Source: Yuukianura sp. NJ FZ-2021 (taxonomy: Eukaryota). From it: a stretch of 64,000 nt of DNA. Of this stretch, positions 563-14,477 are shown piece by piece. The stretch is taken from the NCBI GenBank assembly GCA_046563655.1, contig CM102284.1:2852001-2916000 (forward strand). The letters are read 5' to 3'. The notes below the pieces were generated by a model. That model searched no databases, had not been told where the DNA came from, and saw only the letters and a program-made list of their open reading frames with translations. Position 1 is the first letter of the stretch, and each line of letters begins with the position of its first letter. A program made the translations under genes and the position numbers.

Positions 563-3500
563 CTACTCTTCGTTTCGCCTTTGATTTTTATTTTCAATAT
601 TTCTAGCCTTCTCAACCTCGTACACGTCTCTCCTCGTGTTGACAAGTTCAACCGCTTTTTCAATCGCTTGTCGAGCTTGCTGTGGAGTAGTGGTGTAGCG
701 CTCTTTGCCACCTAGTATTCCCTCGATAACATGTTTCTGGTCCTCAAGAAGTTTATGCGCAATTCGTTCAGCTCGTATTGGGTACGGAGTGGAGTAAACA
801 GTGTTTAGGTCGTAGACATGGTCATCATCTGTGTTACGCGTGTTTTTGTTGGCAACTCCTTGAACATATGTCTTGGGGTCTTGAACAGTTCTTCCTATCT
901 TGATTGCTCCCTCGTCAATGCCTTGGTGCGTATAGCTGTACAGCGATCCCTTCTCGGTTTCACCAGGACTTAGAGGCTCGTCCAAGATTTTTTCTATTTT
1001 CCTCATTGTTTCGTCTGAGATTACTAAATCGCCACCCGCAGCGTCTGCTTCATTCCGCTTTTCTGCCAATTCGGCTTCACGTTGTAGCTGCTGTCCTCTA
1101 ATGGATGATTTTCTTATTTCGCGCTCTGTACCACCCACCATTAAAAATTTAGAGGCCTCTTCCGGATACCTATCCTTCATCCACTGCTCATTGTTATGAA
1201 TTTTCTCAAAGGTGGCGCCACTCTTTAGAACAACCCCAGCCGTTTCAACACGCATCTCCTCTACACTTTTTCCTGCTAGGTGCCCAAGGACTGCATAACC
1301 ACAGTCGGCTCCCGTGCTGGTGATATCGACAAACCCAGATCCGTCGTTGGTTTTGAGACGGTAGTGTCCCACTTGCTCTCCAGGGGGCGGTGGTTCATAA
1401 ACAATTACTTGACAACCGGAGTCAATTTCCTCTTGCGTTTGTTTGTAGTTGGGATCCTCAACAATTTTTACGTTCAAGCCTTCAGCATTTGCTGCCACAA
1501 TCATCAAGGCAATGTCGGCAGGAGCACCGTCGAGAGCGGCTAGAGCAGTTTCGGCTGTCTTGGAAGACACTGGAGCCCCTTCACTGTTGCCAGAATTGAC
1601 TTGTTCTGCGGCCTCTCTCGCAAGTATTGCTGTGTCTCTTCGCTGATAAGCAACAGTGTAGTCCTTTGCGTTTGCAAATATTTGGCTAGCGATTGTGACC
1701 GGTTGGTCATTTTTGGCAAGAAATTCCTTTTCTTCATTTGTTAACATACTTGGATCTTTTTCTTTCAACTCTTTTACTCTGTTTTGGTCTGCTCCACTCT
1801 CCGCTTCGTTTACGAGAAACGCTTGTTGCAATTCCGCTGAAAGTTTGCCAATAATTTTTCCGCCAAGTTTTGACATGGTCGGAGAAACCAAGTGACTGTT
1901 GGCTACTTTGATTATGTGACCGGTGATGAGGTCTACAACACATCGTTTGATGATGCTCAAGTCACTCTGTGACGCAGTTTCAAACGACTTTTGAAGTTTC
2001 TGCAGTTTTTCGAAAAACTCTTTTACGTTTTTATCAGATGGTTTTGCAATCAACTCAAAATCGGTTTCTCCACCAGGCTTAAGTTCAATTTCGCCTGCTT
2101 TTTTCTCAGCTTCATCTCGACTAATTTGAAAGTGGGTTTGGAATTGGAGGGTAAAATTAATCTGATCTTCTGCTAGTTTGGACCGAATTTGATTGAAAAC
2201 CTTGTCAATGGCTTCATGGATCTTGTAAATTCCTTGAACGGCGCCGGCAAACGCTATTGGCGCGGAAAAGGCGCCTCCTATGAAGTTCGGATTGGAGAAA
2301 ATGCCTGTGCAGAGTGGAGCACCAACAGTGTCCCAAATATCTCCTTTTGGATTTGTTGTAGCAGAGACAATTCCTTCAATTTTTGCTTTTAGTTGACCTC
2401 CGCCTGAACTCTTTTTGTAGTTATCCAGTGCCCAGAACTTACTGAGCAGGCGCCGCAGTTCTGCGTTTCGAAAATGATCTTCCACTCGAATTCTTACCTC
2501 CGTTGCAATTGTTTCTCTCAGTTGTTCAAAACAGAAATTGGTCAAATTGTCCGTTAAAGCCTTGAGGCCAATTCGGCCAACGTTTTCGCCGGCTGAAACT
2601 GCAATGGTTTTGACGGCCAATGAACTTAAGTTTTGGCCACTTGCTGTGACAGTTGCAGTGAAAACTTGTTCTGCGGCAGCTTCCGTTGCTTTTTTGGTTA
2701 CAGTTTTGCCAAGCATCTGAGCTCCTTTGGCTCCATCTTTCAAACTGCTCAGTCCCAAAGAAAACGCGGAGATGGCCAAGCTCACAGCTTTTTGCTTTCC
2801 ATATGACGACCAATCGAGTTGACGCGACTGATATGAAGTCCAAGCATAAGTGAAGTCTGACATTCCTTCTGTAATGAGCGACATGCCAAAAGAGGCGCCA
2901 AAACCAGTCGAAATCAAAAACCCGCCTGCGGCTACTTGTAGAGCTGCGAGTGCACATAACGATGCAATGCTGATCCATGGAATAAACATGTCTTCTGAAA
3001 ATGAAATTAGAATAGAGAGCCCTCTAGCGGATAACTGTTGAATCTCGGCCAGTGGAAGACAGTCTTTCATGTACATTTCAAGCAGTTGCTGAGCCTTACT
3101 CTGCTTCATATCTTCTTGTCTGAGGTCTGCATGTGACAGAAGGTCTTGGGCACTTTTGAAAGTCAATCCAGTTACGTCCATGGTGAATCCAATGTTTAGA
3201 TTTCTTAAAAGCGGAATGACGGACCGTGCAATAGAGTCGCTCAGATCCTGGAGTCTGATCACGTTTTGCTGATAACATGACAACAATGTCAGCCAGGATT
3301 TCAAAAGTTCTGCCTTATTTTTCTCGATGCCATTCAAACTCAAGTTGTAGCTGCTGACCCCTGACACGCTCTGACAAATTTTGGTGACCTCGTTCAAAAT
3401 CTCTTTCGATCGGAGGTCAACGCATTTGACAGAAATTAGGGATTGTCCTATACTGGTGAGTTGAGTCGATCTTTTTGTTTCATCTGAGCTTAAAATTTGT

Positions 3501-6500
3501 GTGGTGACCTCTTCTGGTGATTTGGCTCCAACAGATTTAAATTCAACACAAAGTCCAAGCGCATTAAATTTCGGATCGCTGACCAATTTTACAAGATTTT
3601 TCGAGGGACCGATGACCTCTAGGTCAAATGAGGTCACTTTTGCCGATAGCAGTTCCAGTTCAATCAGCGATTTGGTACTTTCTGGAAGCAGTTCGAGTCC
3701 CAAAATGTCAATGGAAAGCTTCGCTTCATTTTTGGACCACAATTCTTGGTCCAATTCCTTACTGTCAAGGATTTTCGCGAGGTCACAAGATGCACAGTTG
3801 AGGTCAACTTTGAACTTGACTCCGCTCCACCACTTCTTTACGTCCATTGGAACTCTTCCAGCTATTCTGCTCTCTCCTTTCAGATTTAAAGTTTGGATGG
3901 CTTGGTCAACACTGCCCATATCAGACAGGACAGCGAGGTCTCTAAACGTAAATGAGAACTGGTCAAAATCTTTCCACTGTTTGATTGACCTGGTACCTCC
4001 ACGTATCAACGTATTCGGCATCAAAACGGTTACACGTTCATATATGTCCGTGTTTTTCGTTTTTGAATGTTTGTCTACACGAATTCTGGTACAATGGACT
4101 CGTCGAAGTGATCGTTCGATGGCATCGATGTTCATGTTAACAGTGTTAACAAAAGTACCGATGAGGTTGGACTTTTCCGTTAGTTGACAGAAGAGTGGCG
4201 ACTGGTCGTCTGAGAGTTCCTGGCGCTCAACCAGCGACTGCGCAACAGTGATCATAGCCATTTCGTCATACAGCAGCGCAAGAGCATCACGGTATAGCCC
4301 GACTGCCTCCTCTTTGTATTCTCCTTTGGCAAGTCTTAAGGCAACAGAAGCCAAACCAACAATTCCACCAGCGGCAAACTGCCTGTCAAGGTCAACAGCT
4401 GTTTGAAAGTACAACTTCGCTTTTTCAAAGTCTTTTCCTTGGTAGTACTCGTGATGTCCAAGTTGGATAAAATAGAAACAGTTTTTGCCGCATTTGAGTA
4501 AATTGAATATGCCAGAATCAACTTCGTTTTGCATGGAAGATTCAAATTCTTCAAAAGCTGGAAGAGAGTTTTCCAACGGAATGATTCCATCATCAACTTG
4601 GCGTAGGAACATGGCCCACCTCTCTTCTACGGATTGAAGGACAGTTGTTTCAAATGGACCGAGTTGATCCCATCCAAATTGTTCTTTGAGATTTCCAAAC
4701 CAACCGCACTGTTCTTTTAATTTCGAGCGCAAACGACTGTAAAATGAACAAAACTTTGAAAAAAGTTCGTCATTTCGCTGAATTGATGGAAATTCTTTGG
4801 ATTCAAAACTTCCGAGCACTTCGGCTTCACCGGCATCTCGCTCGTGTCGAGGATCAACTCCTTTTGCAATTGTGGTTGAAGTTGGTACGCAAATTATAAG
4901 CTGTCCGCTACCTGTTTTTGGAAGTAAAAAAAAGTTTTAAAAAGATTAGAAGAAATATTAACGTGTGATGCAAAATTGTTGTAGTAATAACGATAATTAG
5001 TATAGAATTACCTTTATTTCCTTGGCGCGAAGTTCTTCCGAAAGCTTGTTCTTCAATCCTTTGACTCTGTGGAAGAAAAGTGAGACAAACATGTAGGCCC
5101 CCCTTGCCTTCGATTTCAAGTGTCTTAATGTCCGTTCCTCTTCCCGCCAAATTTGTGGATACAATGACATCTCCTGGATGAATTCTCTCAATTTGAGTTT
5201 CGCTTTGACCTTCATCGCTGTTTTTGGTGTAGACTTTGACCTTGACCTTCGTTGTACTTAGTGCTTGGCTGACAAGTTCCGCTTTGGCAATTGTTTCACA
5301 AATGACCAGCACTCCTCTTCCTTTTCCAGTTTCCTCCAAAGTAGAAATGACAATTTCCCGCATCCATTCCTCTTCTGAGTCCACGACAATATCCGGAAAT
5401 TGTCTGTAGCGTTTGAACTTTGTTTCCGGTAAAGTCAAAAGCTAAAAAACATAAAACAGAAGCAATGATGGGAAACTTAAAAAAAATGGAGAAATCATAA
5501 TTAATGCACAGCATTTTTTCAGCACAGATCATGTACCTTAACGTTGTAGATTCTGTACATAACTTCTCTGCCCTTGGTTGACCCCAATGTCCCCGTGAAC
5601 CCAACGACATTTGACCCGTATTTTTTGAACATGGCCAAATTTGATAGGAAATTTGTAGTAACCGTCTCCGGTTGAATTTTTAGTCCATGCTTCAATCCCA
5701 AAAATTGATGAAGCCCGTTGTTCCAATTGGTGTTACCCTGGACAACTCCTGTAGTCTGAAAGTCAACTGGTTTTATTTGACCTTGGTCGACAATGTAATG
5801 CACGTTTTCCTCATATGCCAATGCCGACAAGGCACTGTCCACCCACTTGGGAATTTGGGCCATTGCAAATGGTTGGAGAAACAGCGGTAGCTTGACGTTA
5901 GCTGACTTGGATGCTGCATCTGGATCAATTAACGCCCTCGCATAGTTCACAAGATGATCTTTGATGTAAGTTTCAACGGATTCAATGGGATGAATCCTCG
6001 CTGCGGCCAAATCCTGATTGGTTATGATGTAACCAAACAGATTGTCTATTCTTCTGGTTTTATTTGTAGTTTGGTCAACATAGTGGTAAATTGGTGCTCC
6101 AGAAGTTTTGTCCTTAGACAGTTGGCCTTCGAGATAGTAGAAATCTTGCGCAATAGAGTAAAGATGTGTTTTGAGATACCCAATACGATCCCAAAGGAAG
6201 TGGTAGATGATTTCCAGAAGGTCCATCCCGGGTAGAGTAGAGCTTAACCGCGCCAGCTTCGAACTGTCATCAATCAACATTGCATCAACTTCATCGACAA
6301 TGGCAAAGTCTGGTACTCGGTATCCCATTGTTCCGAGATCGCTGTACTTATCTCTCAAGAAATCGAATTGAAACTGAGAACATTCGCCATAGACAATGGA
6401 ACGACGGTAACAAGTTTTTTCACCTTTGACATATGAATTTCCCTTGTCCCCATTGTGGTCACATTGGATTCCAAAAATGTCGTAAAATTTTTGCCATTCT

Positions 6501-9500
6501 TTTGCATCACGTTCTGCCAGAACAGGGCTGCTAGTGTAAACATCTACGTTGTGACCTTCCAGTGCTTTGATTACTGACAATACGGCAATTATCGCAGACT
6601 TCCCGGAGCCAGTCGCCACCTATTGATAAAACAACATTAACAAAACCAATTAACGTTTTACCATCGAATATCCTGGTTAAAATATCGAACTAAGTGTTGG
6701 AAATTATCGTAAGGTGTGTTGGTAGGTGGAATGTGGTAGATAAAATGTAGAATGACGTAGATTTAACGCGTTATGTATTAGATGGAATGTGGTAGATAAG
6801 ATGTAGTATGTAGTAGGTGTAATGCTGTAGTATATGGAATGTGGTAGATAAAATGTAATATGTGGTAGGTGTAAATGCTGTATGTAGTAGGTGGAATGTG
6901 GTAGTACAAATATGGTAGGTGGTATGTTTAATGTGGTATGCACTATAGTGCATACTACATTAAACATACTACCTTACCCATAAACTAGTTTATGGGTAAG
7001 GTGTAGTAAACGGAAGGTGCTTTACATTAGGTAATCGGTGGAAGGTAGTTTACAACAACCAAACTAAACTGTTGCGAACGTTATATATGTCATATATAAA
7101 CTTCGGGTTGGCTAACCTGTTGTAGTTGACCTTTGCCTTGATCTTTTTCTAATTTTTGAAGCGCCAACAGACAGGACAGTATCTGAACGTATGTTAGGTC
7201 GAAATTTCTATGAAGTTTCATCGCCTGCTTTGCCACAACCATCGCCTCCAGGTAGAATTCATTTTTAGAAACTTCTTCGGCACCATCTTTAACTCCAAAG
7301 TTTCGGTAGCGCAGGCGACTTGCTTCTTGTGTTAAGCCTTTCACGGCTTCGGTTGTTTCTTCGGAAGCTTCCATTGTATTGCAAAGTAGTTTTGCTTCAT
7401 CTGCCACAGCTTGAATTGAGTTATCCAAAATTCCATTCCGTTTGTACAGATATTTTACCGCGGTTGCCCAGGCATGAATACTCGAAATGTCCCAGTCACA
7501 AATTTTTGTTTCTTCAAATACAAGCGGTTTGTAAATTTTACTGAAAGTGTCTCCGTTTCGGACTTGCAAAATTTTCAATTTCAAAAAATCGTACTGGTAG
7601 CCCGCTTTTGCAAATCTTTCTCTAAGACTACTCCACTTATAGGAGGTTCTAGAATTGGCCAATCGAAACTCTTTGACGATTTGTTCTAAGTCTTTTGCTC
7701 CGTATTTTCCATCAAACACGCTTTCGCTGATCAGCGTATCGACCAGGGAAATTACGTTTTTCGACTTTTTCTCAGTTTCAAGAGCTGTGACAATTTTTGT
7801 AAACAGACTTGGGGTGACCTTGTACTGACTTGCTTGAAAAATGGTGTGCTCAAAAGCTTTGTGAACGGCCAATTTATTTCGCTCGGTTTTGTTTTTTTCA
7901 ATAGTGAGGTCCAGGAGCTTACGTAAATCCGCCACCAAAATACCATTGGACAGAATCATCTTCAAAATTCGTTCAATTCTTGGTTTTCTGGGCGTTCCTG
8001 GTGGCAGCATGCTCAAGATGATTTGCGTTTCAACCAAAATTTTTAGTTCATCCGGTGTGAAATGGCGTGGTTTCAATTTTGGTTTTAAACTTGAAAGTAT
8101 TCCTGCAACTTTTTCTTTTGTTACATGATTTTCAAAACAGGAAATAAGTGCTTCAAGACTGGACACATTTTGAATTTGTGTGAGGGAACCGCCAAGGGCC
8201 ATGGCCATGTCGATGCCCACAATTGATACGAGTCGTTCTGAGAATATTTTGATAACAGCGGGCGAAATTTGAACTTGGAATTTGCTCTCAAGCAGTCGAA
8301 CAAGCAGAATTTCTTGAGTTTCTTGTTCCCAGTTTTTTTCAAATTCGGGATCTTCCAAAACGTTCAGCGTCTCCATTGGGGTAAGTTGTGACAGTGTAGT
8401 CAAAAGGACAGGAACCAAAGACTTTGGAATTTGAGTGCACTTGAGTGAAAGTGTTTGTAGAAAGTAAAAGAACGCTTTCTCAGGACATTTTGAACCAATG
8501 TCATCCAGTAACCCTTGCATTCGAATTTGCTCGTCAATTGAATTTGTGAAGGTAGAAATAAAATTGGATCTCAAAAGAATTTGTCCCCAATCGTCTCGAT
8601 TTTTTCCGCGCAAAGATTTGAGGTCCCAATAGTTGAGGCTGTAGAGAAAATTGAGAAATTCTGCAACAAAAGTTGTATCTTGTGCCAATTCCTTTTCAAT
8701 TACAACTGGATCTTCCGTATCAAAAATTTCACCGAACGTAATATACGCAAGTTCTTCCATATTTAGCATAAAGTCATGCTCAAATTTTTCAATTTCCTTC
8801 AATTCGTCCTGTTTTTTCTTGTCCACTTTCAAATTTTTTACTGGAAGACTGGAAAGTGCTTGCATACTGAGTTTGCGAAGAATTCCCGTTTTTGCATTTC
8901 CCGCCCCTTTGAGCTCTTCTGTCATCAGTTGAACACAGTCGTAAGTGATAAAAGGCTTTCCAATGTCACTCTTACATAGGACTGAAAATGTTTCCAGAAT
9001 TTCAGCTTTTCGTTCAATGGAACATTTTTTTTCGGTGTAAGTTTTGGTCAAGGCGCGAATCAATCTTTTAAATTCTCCCTTGTAACCGCCCTCAACAACT
9101 TTTCTGTAGGCTTGAAAAACAATCAGTTGAATTTTTGCAGAGGAATCTAGCAGAGCCCCTTCGAGGATTTTTCCTGCCTTGGTTTTGGAACTCTCGTCTT
9201 GTGGTAGCGGGAATTTCAAAATGTGACGTGCTGTAAAATATGCAAGATTTGCCGCGCTTTTAAGTGACCCAAGATCGGTAGATAAGACTTTGTAGAAATG
9301 TTGTTTTCCCATTTTCAAGTTATCCAAATAAGGGCTGACTCCCTTAAGTCCTTTGTCTATTTTCTTTCCTTCCAAGGAACACTCAAATTCAAGCGCTGCG
9401 ACGATGTGTGGGTCGACGACGTTTTGCTGCTTCGGAATTTTCAGAATCAAGTCTTTTGTGAATTCCGTACATGTTTGAAGGTAGTGAACCATTGTGCGGG

Positions 9501-12500
9501 AAAATTTGAATCCGTGGTCAAGTATACTGTGGAGTATACTTTTAGTAAGCAATCGAACCTTCTCAAAGTCTGAGTTGTTCACCATAGCAAGCGTTACAGC
9601 TTCGTAGGTAGCAGTTGGAAGCTTTGTTTTTTGAGTATAGTCACTCAGAATCTGAAGTGCTTGAAGTAAGACGTCTGAATTTTGATTGGTGGAGAGCAGA
9701 ATCTGCATTCGGGTTTGACATGGTCCACTTTGGAAGAAGTCGTGGTCTTGCATTTGGAGCAAAAATGGAAGATCAGCTAGGAATTCTTTATCTGTTTTGT
9801 TTTCTAGGTTGGACAATTTGAGCGTTGCTTGAAGTCCCAAAGGCAATTTTTTCTGGGTTGACAAAAATTCGGCGATTGACGCCTTGACGGAAGCGGAAGA
9901 AGCAGGACGTCTTTGAATTTGAGCGAGAAGTTTGAAATCTGAATCGTCACAAAATGGCGCTAGAAAACAAAATTCAAAGCGTTAATTGTGTAATTTTAAT
10001 TTTTTTGTATTGTTTAAGAGTGTCGCCATGCATGATTACATTTGTTATAAAATTACATCAAAATTAATATTTTCTCAAGTATAAATTCATAATTCCAGAC
10101 TCTTCCAAAACCGTAAAATTTCTTAAACATTTTCACATGAATAATCTTACCGGCATAATTGGCGTTGTTTTCTCCACCCGTCGCCTTGTTAAGGGCAATA
10201 AATCCATGTAGACCTGTTTCCAGTAGTTGTCCATTTTCTTCATATAGAGCCATGACAAAAACTTTTTTCAATGTAGCCTTATCCAAGTCTAATTGTTCTC
10301 CACAGTTAACTAAGCTTGAAAGTGCTGCAAGGATTTCAAGACGTTGCCGATGGTTACCGGCATTCTCCGGAATAAATCCTTGGCAGAATTTGCTCATCAC
10401 TTGCTCAAGCTTTGAAAATTTTCGGTTGTTTTGAAGAAGTTTTGTAAGAACTGCAAGAATTGTCTGGTTGACCTCATCCGTGTTAAAGATTGTAGCAAAT
10501 GACTGAGAGCAAAATTGGGAAATGAGTTGATCCAAATAAGCTGGCGGCAGAGTTTGATTGTTGTCAACCAGCGCCAGAGCAATTTTTGCCAGAGTTTTGA
10601 CATTCTTTTGGCGTTCAAAAATGGTTTCAATAATTTCCGCAGACAGTGTTTGACCATTTTCAGCAGCAATGGTAAGTGCTTGGAGAGCCTTCTCAGAGTA
10701 GTCCTTGAAGGAGAGACTGGATTCCAAAGCAAAAAGTGTTAGCGGAGACGCCATAATTCCTTGACTGGCAGAGTTCAAAAGTGTTTCAATCAAATTCTGT
10801 TGAACGGTTTTTGAATCCTTGTGTGGCAAAAAATTCTTCATTAATTCTGGAAGTTGAACCGGGCAATTTTTAATTGATTGTGTTTGCAGCAAGAGACGCG
10901 CCGAAGCAAAGTCGAGGTCAAAATTTACAAAAACGTGATCAGCAACATCTTGCCCAAAAATTGCAAACATCATGATCAGAAAATTGGAGTCGTTGTCGTG
11001 CAAATTTCGGAAAATGTGTTCCACTACGTTGTCACTCAATGGGAGCCCAAGCTTCACAGTTAATGCAAAAATAACCTGCAAAAGAAACCAAGATTTTTAT
11101 ACAATTACTGTCAATATTTCGCAATTTTTTCTTCTAAAAGAAGCAGAATTAGTGATAAAAGTAAACTAGAAGAATGTATTTAGAAAACCCGGTTCAAATT
11201 CAATTTCTGTATTGTTAATAAAACATATCTGACGCAAAGTATACATCATAAATTCAAATTCAAATTGAAAAAATGAATTTGCTGCAGGACAGCACAAGCG
11301 TAAAGTAACCCAGCGGTGGCAGATTGAAAACAGTCAAATTACCCGAGTCGAAAGTGGCAACTGTGCTTGGTTAGACAGGAAAATATTTTCCACGGCTTCT
11401 CTACAGTAGTTTGGCACTGTTTTTGGAGATTTTGTAGCTTCCAGTTGTTTCAGAAGTATTTCCAGCGTAGGAGTGACGACACTTTGTGATGCATCAGCAG
11501 TGTCGCTTAAGTTGAACGTCAGAAGCTGGAAGACCAAATCAGTAAACGTCACCAGACTAGCCTGTGCTTCTAGAACAGACAGGATGCATGGGTTGACAAA
11601 CGGTGTAAAATCCTTGTCGTCAAGAATTAATTTTTCGAAACAGTAAACTTGTGCAAGCCAGTTGAGGTCAAACGAAGTCATCGGTTTTCTAGGGAAAATG
11701 AAACTTCATTTAAAATCGTTTTTGTGCTCATAAAGGTTCAATTCAATTTTGTTGTTTTTTTATTTCTTACGACTTGGCATATTCATTCTGAGCAAGGGAA
11801 GTTAAGTAAGCTCCGCGGCAGTGGATCTGGAATGACAAAATATTTTCAAAGTCATTAGAGTTCTTTCCACAGTAAATAAATTAAACGCATAGTATCACCA
11901 CTACGCAAGGATTAAGTAAAAATTCGCAATACAAACTCAAACTCAAACCCAAAAATTGAGCGTTCCAAACAATTCTTTTTTGCTGAAGAATAAAGAATCA
12001 ATTTTTGGAGCTATCAAAACAAACTACACATGCGCGTAAATTTTAAGTTAGTACCTTGACATCTACCACACTTTCCGTTTCTTCTGCAAACGGTTGAAGC
12101 AAAGCGAGTTGTGTTTGGTCCAACGTCTTTCCCGCCATGACCACCGTAAACAAACATTCTGCACACAAAATTCTTGTGTTTTTGTTGCGACTGGACTTTA
12201 GTGCTTCCAAAATATTTGTAAATGTGGTCTCCCGGCATTTGAAATTTGTCATATCCTTGACTTGTTCTTTCAAATAGTGAAGTAAAATGTGTGCAGTCAT
12301 GTGAGACACATAAGTAACACCTTCTTCAGCCGGTCGAAGGTCATCTTCTTTGCCATCACCCTCAGTGCTCAAGTGAACTGTTCCGTACTCGTCAACTGTA
12401 TCTTCCTTCATAAGTCGGAAAGACAGAAGATCAGCATTGGGGATTTTGATTTCATTTGGAAACTTGATGACCAAGTTGCCCAAAGAAACTAAAATGAGAG

Positions 12501-14477
12501 CTTCCAGTTTTGGATTTTTCTTCAAATTTGAAATTCTGATAAGAAAATTCAGCAAATCATCTGGTAGCGCCTTCGGCTCAAAATTTTGCTTGTTTAAAGT
12601 TTTCAAAATGGACTCAATAATGGCCTCCAAAAATGGAAGTTCTTTGCCATCCCATTTTTTGTCTTTCTTCACAGCATCGTAAGCTTTGGTAAATGCACCA
12701 AGCCACTCTTTGGACAATCCAGGGCTGGATTCGTGCTCAAGGTAGTCACATACTATTTGACCCACTTGTGTTTGCATTTTCTTTGCATCGGCACTACTAG
12801 CGTCTTGTGTCGTAATTTTGAGAAGTTTTTCAAAAAAATTCTGCTTTTCCTCAAGGTCGTTTGCTCTTTGTTCGATGTTGGCCTAAAAAAAATTTAAAAA
12901 AACATCACTTAAAAAATGTACTCAATTTTTTGTAAAGTATTTTTTTCAGAAATAATTTTTGTTTCTAGAAAAAAAAAACAATAATCTTTTTCGCTAAATA
13001 ATACCTGCTCAGCAATATATTCCAAATGTTGTTCATAATTTTCATCTGCTTCTTTTTGCTTGTTATTGAAGTATTTGCACAGAGCTTCAATTGACTCGGC
13101 AAAAGTTTCGTGAAGATTGTTGTCATCTTTTTTGAAAATTCGCCAAAGAATTCTCCGCATTTCTGCATTGCACCGCTCTTCTTTCCTGAACTTTTGAAGC
13201 AGTTTTTCTGATTTAGTGGGCAGCTGGGATCTCATTCTACACTGTTCCAACGTACGGAGCAGCGTAAGCCTTCGATCAGTTGCAGGCGGGTCTAACATGA
13301 AGTCGGTCAACGGATACTCCGTTAGCGCATCAATAATGTTATCAGGAATTACTTGTTGTTCGCTAATTTTTAAAAAGGCTTTGCCAATTTGGGCTCGGGT
13401 GAGTTCCGGCATAGCGCCAGCAAATCCAAGTGTGATTCCCCAAGCAATGAACTTATCTTTAAGATAAACCATGTCGTCGTAACAGATTGGTTGTCCGCTA
13501 TGGGCTTGATCGTAGAGATAACTCACTTCCATTCCCGTCGTCCGCCAATAGGATCGCACGCTTTCTCCTTCATTGCTGAGTGTTGGAGTCAATTCTAGGG
13601 TTTGATTAGTCCCGCGAACTTTTCCTCTGGAACTGTTTAGTGCCTTGGCAAGATTGATAGCCTCAATTTCTTCTTTTTCTGACACATTGTGTTTGTATAC
13701 AGTCGTAACCGCTTGTTGACTCTTGACAACGTCTGCCCTTTGACCTGACTTTTTAGTCACCTCATGCACATGCGTCAACACACCCGATCCCGTTTGAAAA
13801 ACGCTTTTTTCACTTTTTTCCAACTCGTCCGCGTAGTAATCCTTATGCTCTTTGGCTTTTGACTTTCCCTTGTCCTGACCTTTTTCTGAAAAATCCGCGG
13901 CAAGGCCGAGTTTCACTAGTTTGGCATGTAAGAGAGACGACGTCTTGAGGTCAACTTGTGGAAGGTAGCTCTTCACATGCGAAATCAGCTTAGAGTCGCA
14001 GTTGTCATGGGTTAGCGTCATTGTGATGCACTGGATCAGCTGACTCAAAATGGCGTGGCAGACAACGTCATCCTTGCCTGGACCTTGGTTTTGTTTTTGA
14101 ATTGTCGAAATGTGCTTTAAAATTTTAGCTGGGTCTAGGGCAGTTTCATTATACGCAAGTGAGTACTTGAGAGTTGTGGCAATGTGATACTTTGTTTCCG
14201 CAGTTACGTTAGGTGACTCAAGAAAAGCACAGATTGACTCCAGAATAGACAGTGGAAGGCCGTGACGACGCGCGAGGTACTTGAGCAGTTTGATGACATT
14301 GCATGAAGCACCGTCGTCCAGCTTCCAGCATGCGTCTAAATGGATTGTGTTTTTCGAGGCATGCGCAGTCCAGAGCTTTTGAAGCTCTTGATAGACGAGT
14401 GAACTGTCTGAGGCGTGGACGTAAAGATTGAAAAAAGTTCGAAATTCTTTTGCAAAGTCCATTTTCTCCAGGCACAT
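563..14477 (-). CDS. Giant (~4110 aa) SecA-like ATPase protein with N-terminal helical repeats and a C-terminal hydrophobic hairpin, permuted OTU-like protease and T5orf172/GIY-YIG-like domain; 9 coding exons
   Basis: Hand-spliced exons with GT-AG boundaries and matching phases: 14477-13005, 12882-12055, 11826-11771, 11688-11343, 11075-10151, 9959-7117, 6619-5537, 5441-5012, 4911-563 (12333 nt, divisible by 3). SecA motifs: QVATGSGKS, LAERDA, FQFDFLRD, AIVDEVDAMLID, WNNGLHQF, GFTGT, STNLAGRGTDI, GGLHV, QAFGRTSRQGNKG. The start could be ATG 14477 or 14462; a likely 5'UTR intron lies at ~14501-14881. Confidence 0.85.
6712..6960. repeat. Degenerate intronic minisatellite or low-complexity repeat (GGAATGTGGTAGATAAAATGTAG-like units)
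   Basis: Recurring ggaatgtggtag(ataa) units at ~6729, 6784, 6836 and 6892 inside intron 6620-7116 of the SecA-like gene. Confidence 0.7.

Follow-up and report, generated by a model that had tools for sequence, protein, structure and literature searches.

Releasing peptidases, OTU-like ones among them, have been predicted in polymorphic toxins, and effectors of Amoebophilus with SecA-like, helicase-related domains appear in the same survey (Zhang et al. 2012, PMC3482391, in the portions that deal with these proteins). SecA-like ATPases fused to giant actinobacterial toxins are described in a part of PMC8195603, and the passages of PMC5062602 on the eukaryotic association module of phage WO (Wolbachia) report giant genes with SecA domains whose closest relatives are in invertebrates; variable C-terminal toxin domains, with furin sites ahead of them, are reported there for these giant genes. 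Among deubiquitinases, EschOTU has a permuted threading with the catalytic His ahead of the Cys, attributed to that protein alone in the structural passages of PMC7396840. The same passages give the OTU signature as an acidic residue or Asn two positions after the His (His+2), place the acid of clan CE on the next strand, and assign to a Trp of EschOTU the holding of the Gly-Gly of ubiquitin and to a basic residue the support of the Cys-loop. Here we compare with these systems a giant gene on the minus strand of a 64,000-nucleotide (nt) stretch of DNA from Yuukianura sp. NJ FZ-2021 (GenBank assembly GCA_046563655.1, contig CM102284.1, positions 2,852,001 to 2,916,000; the whole stretch is hereafter called the window). 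The protein contains a peptidase-like domain with a conserved Cys and His that ends at a Gly-Gly motif, and beyond the motif stands a C-terminal tip that differs widely among homologues. We put at about 0.5 the probability that the domain cleaves its own chain after a [GA]G motif and so releases the tip, judging from aligned homologues and predicted models.

The motif KFLMVGGT is encoded on the minus strand at nt 1127-1150 (reverse complement AAA TTT TTA ATG GTG GGT GGT ACA; residues 1225-1231), within an open reading frame (ORF) of 1418 amino acids (aa) at nt 563-4819 that forms the last exon of the giant gene and has its stop codon at 563-565. The corresponding pattern in the family is L-L-[FLM]-x-[GA]-G. 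The Gly-Gly itself occupies nt 1130-1135 (codons 1133-1135 and 1130-1132; ORF residues 1229-1230). Domain numbering takes ORF residue 1040 as residue 1 and covers the last 379 aa of the ORF; the two glycines are G190 and G191 of the model. The putative catalytic Cys134 (codon 1301-1303) is located 56 residues N-terminal of the first Gly, and His113 (codon 1364-1366) is 21 residues ahead of Cys134. These positions agree with an earlier note, made from the sequence alone, which had reported the motif, the placement of its Gly codons and a catalytic Cys about 55 residues before it. Together with an N-terminal helix, the peptidase-like domain extends over nt 1130-1702 on the minus strand (ORF residues 1040-1230), as delimited with 101 homologues and an AlphaFold2 (AF2) model, and Arg151 (1250-1252) and Pro61-Ala62 (1517-1522) are further conserved columns within it. 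By itself a GG is unremarkable, because about ten GG dipeptides occur in the same 1418-aa ORF; this one stands above chance because it is conserved at the same position in homologues. According to the model, the pair would be the last ordered residues of the domain, and we propose that they represent P2 and P1 of a processing site.

Conservation around the motif was examined in homologues collected with HMMER, whose full scan with the C-terminal 379 aa returned 101 proteins at E<=0.001 and 69 at E<=1e-10. A homologue search limited to proteins of near length had given nothing, and the profile of the domain alignment A1 (described below) gave just 2 matches at longer lengths. For the count of alignment end points, P0002 was added to the HMMER set, locally re-aligned, and P0067 was removed, leaving 101 proteins. 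P0067 is a 1882-aa protein of about ten repeats whose best stretch covers query residues 84-147 only; it was judged spurious and left out of all counts. Its repeats match the segment lying between the His and the helix of the Cys. The best alignment ended at query residues 185-205, that is, around the GG at 190-191, in 76 of the 101 proteins, and the remaining ends were found before 185 in 13 (fragments), at 206-230 in 6 and beyond 230 in 6. Motif and identity counts were made on 73 anchored instances with 40 residues on either side of the GG. For consecutive bins of 10 residues, pairwise identity averaged 20.1, 23.9, 32.4 and 45.7% before the GG and 8.4, 7.0, 6.7 and 6.7% after it, the background being ~6.7%. 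The check set by the earlier note, whether conservation ends at the GG, was thus answered in the affirmative both by the fall from 45.7% to 8.4% and by the clustering of alignment ends.

The residues of the motif itself were then counted. P1 was Gly in 65 of the 73 instances, P2 was Gly in 47 and Ala in 21, P4 was Phe in 40, Leu in 12 and Met in 8 (60/73 for the three), and P5 was Leu in 64. When the dipeptide was tallied over 90 instances, GG was found in 46, AG in 22, GA in 8 (six of them followed by a further G) and VG in 3, with others occurring singly, two of which are one-residue register slips of GG and AG. These counts indicate that the rule is small-Gly ([GA]G) and not strict GG. The Gly at P1 in the di-glycine motif of the earlier note stood; a strict di-glycine did not, P2 being either Gly or Ala in 68/73. 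A boundary of conservation at this position is strongly supported by the aligned sequences.

The domain upstream of the boundary was characterized with alignment A1, which consists of the window and 45 of 51 full-length segments (46 rows); P0003, P0035, P0037, P0052, P0074 and P0081 were left out, of which P0074 and P0081 lack the Cys. Cys134 and Arg151 were present in 46/46 rows and His113 in 45/46, followed by Leu187 (44/46), Tyr86 and Trp174 (43/46 each), Pro61 (42/46) and Ala62 (41/46). The His-Cys pair was intact in 78 of the 82 instances that cover both columns. No Pfam match to the domain was obtained in the window (E<=10) or in the 46 aligned members, and no NCBIfam model matched the C-terminus of the window protein. 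This holds for Pfam OTU (PF02338), which gave no match in the window at E<=10 and 0/46 among the members, and for the Pfam models of clan CE, which matched none of the 46. A profile search of the PDB yielded just OTUD1 (E 1.4, over the Cys motif), and a phmmer search of the PDB with the last 379 aa gave chance matches only (E>=0.5). Leads in the ESM Atlas were all below 0.9, with YccE-named clusters at 0.86-0.87 and a giant-virus OTU cluster at 0.85.

A model built by AF2 with A1 had a predicted local distance difference test (pLDDT) score of 91.7. In it, the His lies on a four-stranded sheet, the Cys opens a helix, and further helices give support. Neither the PDB nor a viral fold library yielded a Foldseek match at E<=0.001. 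With an exhaustive structural aligner, 2 of 48,161 chains reached Z>=5: 6w9s_A, the Escherichia albertii OTU with ubiquitin (Z 6.1, root mean square deviation 4.2, 129 aligned, model residues 38-180), and 2bkq_A, a NEDD8 protease (Z 5.3). A truncated model matched 6w9s_A at Z 6.6 with 127 aligned, and OtDUB, SseL, SENPs, the CidB deubiquitinase domain, YopJ-like proteins and RickCE scored Z 3.6-4.8 against the full model. Residue 126, on the neighbouring strand, was Asp or Glu in 28/46 rows. Because the hallmarks of OTU are partly absent and the acid of clan CE is partial, we describe the domain as a papain-like peptidase of the deubiquitinase/Ulp type with the His before the Cys. The earlier note had spoken of an OTU enzyme: the conserved Cys and His and a deubiquitinase-type papain fold held up, and the OTU label is no more than approximate, in view of the 0/46 Pfam OTU matches, the order of His and Cys, a His+2 that is not acidic and a fold that ties with clan CE. 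As modelled, the domain is close to the permuted OTU and to clan CE, with membership in neither established.

If the domain processes its own chain, the tail L-[FLM]-x-[GA]-G would sit in the substrate groove, as the LRGG of ubiquitin does in a deubiquitinase. Cys134 and His113 would sever the chain behind the second Gly, either in cis or in an adjacent molecule, and the cut would free the tip, here a 187-aa T5orf172 nuclease-like module. The form of the motif, hydrophobic-x-small-Gly, resembles the LRGG of ubiquitin and NEDD8. The order of the AF2 model breaks off at the motif, mean pLDDT being 96 for residues 181-190 and 59 for residues 191-200. G190 and A62 are the only isolated beta-bridge residues in the full model. 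When residues 187-236 were removed and residues 1-186 were modelled alone with the same alignment rows, the A62 bridge was gone, which suggests that the P2 Gly pairs with the Pro-Ala loop in the model. From the ranges that align (model 38 to chain 193), the succession of secondary-structure elements and the structural passages of PMC7396840, we infer that the P61-A62 loop corresponds to the W214 loop of EschOTU, before the same helix, and the tail would dock in the groove. A reading of the GG as the "WGG" loop of canonical OTU enzymes moved to the C-terminus was considered and dropped; the EschOTU paper puts the permutation point elsewhere, and the equivalent of the Trp loop would here be Pro61-Ala62, so not the GG. 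An uncontrolled prediction of a complex between domain residues 1-186 and the next 50 residues gave no verdict (score 0.00).

We also examined the members with a broken His-Cys pair, which number 4 of the 82: P0019 (His to Ser), P0074 (His to Tyr, Cys to Ser), P0081 (Cys to Gly) and P0096 (His to Gln). P0019, P0074 and P0081 have Ser at P1 (GS, RS and CS, respectively), keep R151 and L187, and carry tails of 26-114 aa. In a 65-row tree, these three fell inside a 6-row clade (support 99) together with three intact GG members; the tree includes the four trait columns, and the "dead" label needs just 2 changes on it. A Fisher test of the co-loss (p 0.005) does not count as independent evidence: of the four rows with a dead catalytic pair, three belong to a single clade.

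Downstream of the GG, the window protein continues with a charged linker of ~62 aa (nt 944-1129, minus strand). Its first residues are disordered in the AF2 model (pLDDT <50 at residues 196-198) and are followed by a predicted helix (residues 197-221). The tip is a T5orf172 (GIY-YIG-related) domain at nt 656-943 on the minus strand (C-terminal 96 residues; PF10544, E 3.1e-5, 24.8 bits with a cut-off of 20). The G..Y, K.G, E, H and G..E positions are kept between it and five homologous T5orf172 tips. In one column, the window tip has Tyr where 5/5 of the homologous tips have Arg.

Next, the tails of the family were compared. Grouping by BLAST of the 61 tails of at least 60 aa (60 homologues and the window) gave 39 unrelated groups, the largest with 8 members. 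Among 37 shorter proteins, Pfam identified T5orf172 in 4 and Phage_lysozyme in 1; Lipase_3 and Endonuclea_NS_2 were each seen in 3, of which one and two, respectively, scored below the cut-off, and 26 were without a tip family. Of 12 long proteins, 11 have SecA-like domains, and their tips include T5orf172, Lipase_3 (two) and Phage_lysozyme. Tips that differ past the junction, as the earlier note had supposed, are therefore found, with lipase, lysozyme and two nuclease types among the 39 tail groups. In this family a conserved body is thus followed, across a sharp junction, by hypervariable C-terminal domains, the arrangement by which polymorphic toxins are recognized. P0003 contains two near-identical tandem peptidase-like units (residues 1144-1332 and 1513-1702), the sole case among 94 proteins, and each unit is followed by its own downstream segment, a polyprotein-like layout.

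The domain was also found in bacteria. A 5225-aa "SecA-like domain protein" from a plasmid of Candidatus Megaera polyxenophila contains it with 36% identity over query residues 3-191, and there the domain ends in LLFSGG, with ~1125 residues following that include a weak RickCE_cat match. On this plasmid (L001, 268-20736) the gene for the 5225-aa protein adjoins a second giant "SecA-like domain protein" gene, which encodes 1589 aa. The tail of the Megaera protein begins GG-C-x-x-C, like those of P0038 and P0043. The lysozyme-tipped P0005 has its source in a long uninterrupted ORF of a Francisellaceae metagenome-assembled genome (7-row alignment, one locus). A tblastn search of 50,697 phage records detected no peptidase-like domain of this kind.

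Several observations weigh against self-cleavage at the motif. The structural points all rest on predicted models, and the fold scores are middling: with the truncated model, 27 helical-hairpin matches (51-73 residues) rank higher, which we take as noise from its two long helices. His+2 is variable (commonest Tyr 10, Arg 5, Ser 5, Leu 4, Gln 4 and Lys 4 of 46) and never acidic or Asn, next to a His+1 that is Tyr, Trp or Phe in 32/46 and Ala in 13/46, and the 58-63 loop has no aromatic residue in A1. At the motif, 22/90 instances are AG and 8/90 are GA, and the AG instances (n=21) keep 18.7% identity over the 10 residues past it, which implies a short conserved extension in this subgroup, where the conserved unit runs on. 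P0096, a second lineage, keeps AG despite its His-to-Gln change, and the co-loss of site and catalytic residues represents one lineage and, as a pattern among sequences, is suggestive only. In the Megaera protein, the ~1125 aa after the GG contain a separate RickCE-type domain, and the peptidase-like domain could be one module among several there. In many members the first three positions behind the GG are rich in Lys and Arg (for example, GGKRKK and GGKKKK); such clusters could be dibasic protease sites, a target of a host convertase or a nuclear-localization-like signal on the freed tip. Finally, the tip classes were mapped on a quick tree built from the 34 peptidase-like rows whose tips could be classed, and they required 12 changes (minimum 8, shuffled mean 22.9), so the tips were mostly co-inherited with the domain. 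Nevertheless, three kinds of tip occur within one well-supported 12-row clade of this tree, and the Endonuclea_NS_2 tip must have arisen at least twice. These sequences indicate that tip replacement occurs and is not rampant.

The alternative that survives best is that the GG marks only a hinge or the structural end of a domain, and that the Cys/His domain acts in trans, on host or other proteins, as a deubiquitinase or protease of ubiquitin-like proteins while the tip stays attached. The enzymes with the nearest folds all work in trans, their substrates being ubiquitin, NEDD8 or SUMO; domains often end in small residues, and G190 belongs to the packed part of the model; and the Megaera domain stands among other modules that include the RickCE-type deubiquitinase domain. 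However, the conserved hydrophobic P4 and P5 with a Gly at P1, which mimic LxGG, are left unexplained by a hinge, as is the joint loss of the Gly and the catalytic residues in one lineage that kept its fold residues. We regard this alternative as unlikely, yet deserving serious consideration.

Release of the tip by a host protease, furin/Kex2-like or other, acting in a basic or disordered linker would account for the Lys/Arg-rich P1'-P3' of many members and for the predicted disorder of the linker, and it has a parallel in the furin sites before the variable C-terminal domain of giant phage WO genes (PMC5062602, in its passages on these genes). By contrast, the linker of the window protein, TEREIRKSS, is without a strong basic cluster beside the GG, the basic residues are not positionally conserved, and the constant placement of a Cys/His domain directly before the junction would go unexplained; this explanation is very unlikely. 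Equally poor are the prospects of a processing peptidase that cuts elsewhere, for instance a few residues downstream or somewhere upstream, with the GG as a product-binding or tail anchor, for which the ~10-15 conserved aa after the motif in the AG subgroup and the register slippage suggested by GA(G) variants speak, whereas the GG subgroup is already at background identity (7.5%) in the first 10 residues past the motif.

Self-cleavage after [GA]G by the adjacent domain, the reading that we prefer, would take place at the end of a giant protein. By tblastn, the gene can be followed over nt 563-14438 on the minus strand, collinear with residues 17-3770 of P0001, which comes from the fungus gnat Bradysia coprophila and is 3947 aa long. 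The alignment with P0001 ends at nt 1121, three codons beyond the GG. The gaps between the collinear minus-strand ORFs start with GT and end with AG, and the gene is an intron-bearing animal gene. A SecA-like ATPase is encoded in two exons at nt 4908-6619 (minus strand), which match the SecA_DEAD (E 5.4e-29), P-loop_SecA (E 1.8e-19), SecA_PP_bind and Helicase_C profiles, have GT..AG introns and are collinear with P0001. A hydrophobic Gly-rich segment at nt 2900-2989 (minus strand; ORF residues ~611-647), with a Kyte-Doolittle 19-residue mean of up to 2.07, is likely membrane-embedded, judging from its composition. The encoded protein thus has, in order, the SecA-like ATPase, the hydrophobic segment, the Cys/His domain and the T5orf172 tip. 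The intron at nt 6620-7090 (minus strand), upstream of the SecA_DEAD exon, contains many imperfect copies of a short CTACCACATTCCA-like unit.

The surroundings of the gene were also inspected. ORFs at nt 17604-57138 match two cytochrome P450 pieces, a flavin adenine dinucleotide (FAD)/berberine bridge enzyme (BBE) oxidase, two pieces of glycoside hydrolase family 18 (GH18), an EF-hand protein, a pyridoxal phosphate (PLP) decarboxylase and an ionotropic glutamate-receptor channel. These are animal-type families, which places the gene on an animal chromosome. A tblastn search with the ORF found no paralogs of it within the 64-kb window, and no immunity gene or spare toxin cassette was seen, just 562 nt of the window lying downstream of the stop codon.

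We consider it an even chance that the gene encodes a polymorphic-toxin-like effector with a releasing peptidase of a family uncatalogued in Pfam and NCBIfam, to go by the sequences and models. A bolder proposal, which we hold to be quite unlikely as a whole, is a one-polypeptide delivery device: the SecA-like motor and the membrane segment would translocate the C-terminus, and the permuted deubiquitinase-like peptidase would have no task but to cut its own [GA]G tail, so that an exchangeable cargo (nuclease, lipase or lysozyme) is set free. The device would have passed to animals from intracellular bacteria, or in the opposite direction, and animals would have retained it as a gene with introns, possibly for use as a weapon in immunity. 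If self-cleavage is correct, the domain would be a second natural example of permuted OTU-like threading, EschOTU being the sole one in the structural passages of PMC7396840. It would also stand for a new family of self-processing peptidases that neither Pfam nor NCBIfam contains, and the cut would be the release step of a large unstudied class of ~4000-aa modular effectors in invertebrates and Rickettsiales/Francisellaceae-type bacteria. L-L-[FLM]-x-[GA]-G would then serve as a simple sequence rule for the boundary of the cargo. A literature search found no description of the animal family or of the junction motif, and no use of the phrase "SecA-like domain," although members of the family might be listed in supplements of the cited papers.

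Five known systems can be set beside this locus. The giant phage WO genes of PMC5062602 resemble it in their size, in their SecA domain and in the variability of their C-terminal toxin domains. Viral papain-like leader proteases and viral OTU-like proteases cut at their own C-terminus at Gly-Gly or Gly-Ala. There, too, a small-Gly motif lies some tens of residues beyond the last catalytic residue of a papain-like domain; the cut at this site frees the downstream protein, and the Cys precedes the His in these viral enzymes. The present domain had no sequence or structural match in the viral fold library. Enzymes of clan CE (Ulp1/SENP, NEDD8 protease, adenain, RickCE and SseL) share with it the order of His before Cys, and their structural matches score Z 4-5.3. 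Clan CE enzymes cut after Gly-Gly, and adenain prefers (M/I/L)-x-G-G, a preference that the MVGG of the window fits. The His strand and the Cys are much farther apart in clan CE than in this domain, and a further difference is the acid on the neighbouring strand, which is here only partly conserved.

With polymorphic toxins, as portrayed in the relevant portions of PMC3482391, the family shares a conserved body, a peptidase and a hypervariable C-terminal toxin, with tips of nuclease, lipase and lysozyme types. It differs from them in that the window copy is an intron-bearing animal gene among animal genes and that its peptidase domain matches no Pfam toxin-peptidase model. EschOTU (PDB 6W9S) is a free-standing deubiquitinase, whereas the domain described here stands at a junction. 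EschOTU also has His-aromatic-Asn where this family has a variable His+2, and its Trp holds the Gly-Gly of ubiquitin where Pro-Ala occupies the equivalent loop here. It is nonetheless the best match to the alpha/beta core (Z 6.1-6.6 over 127-129 residues), with the His before the Cys in both, and its termini are near the substrate-binding side, according to the structural passages of PMC7396840. The invariant R151 of the family (46/46) lies 17 residues after Cys134 and, by its position, may be equivalent to K318, the basic residue of the EschOTU Cys-loop.

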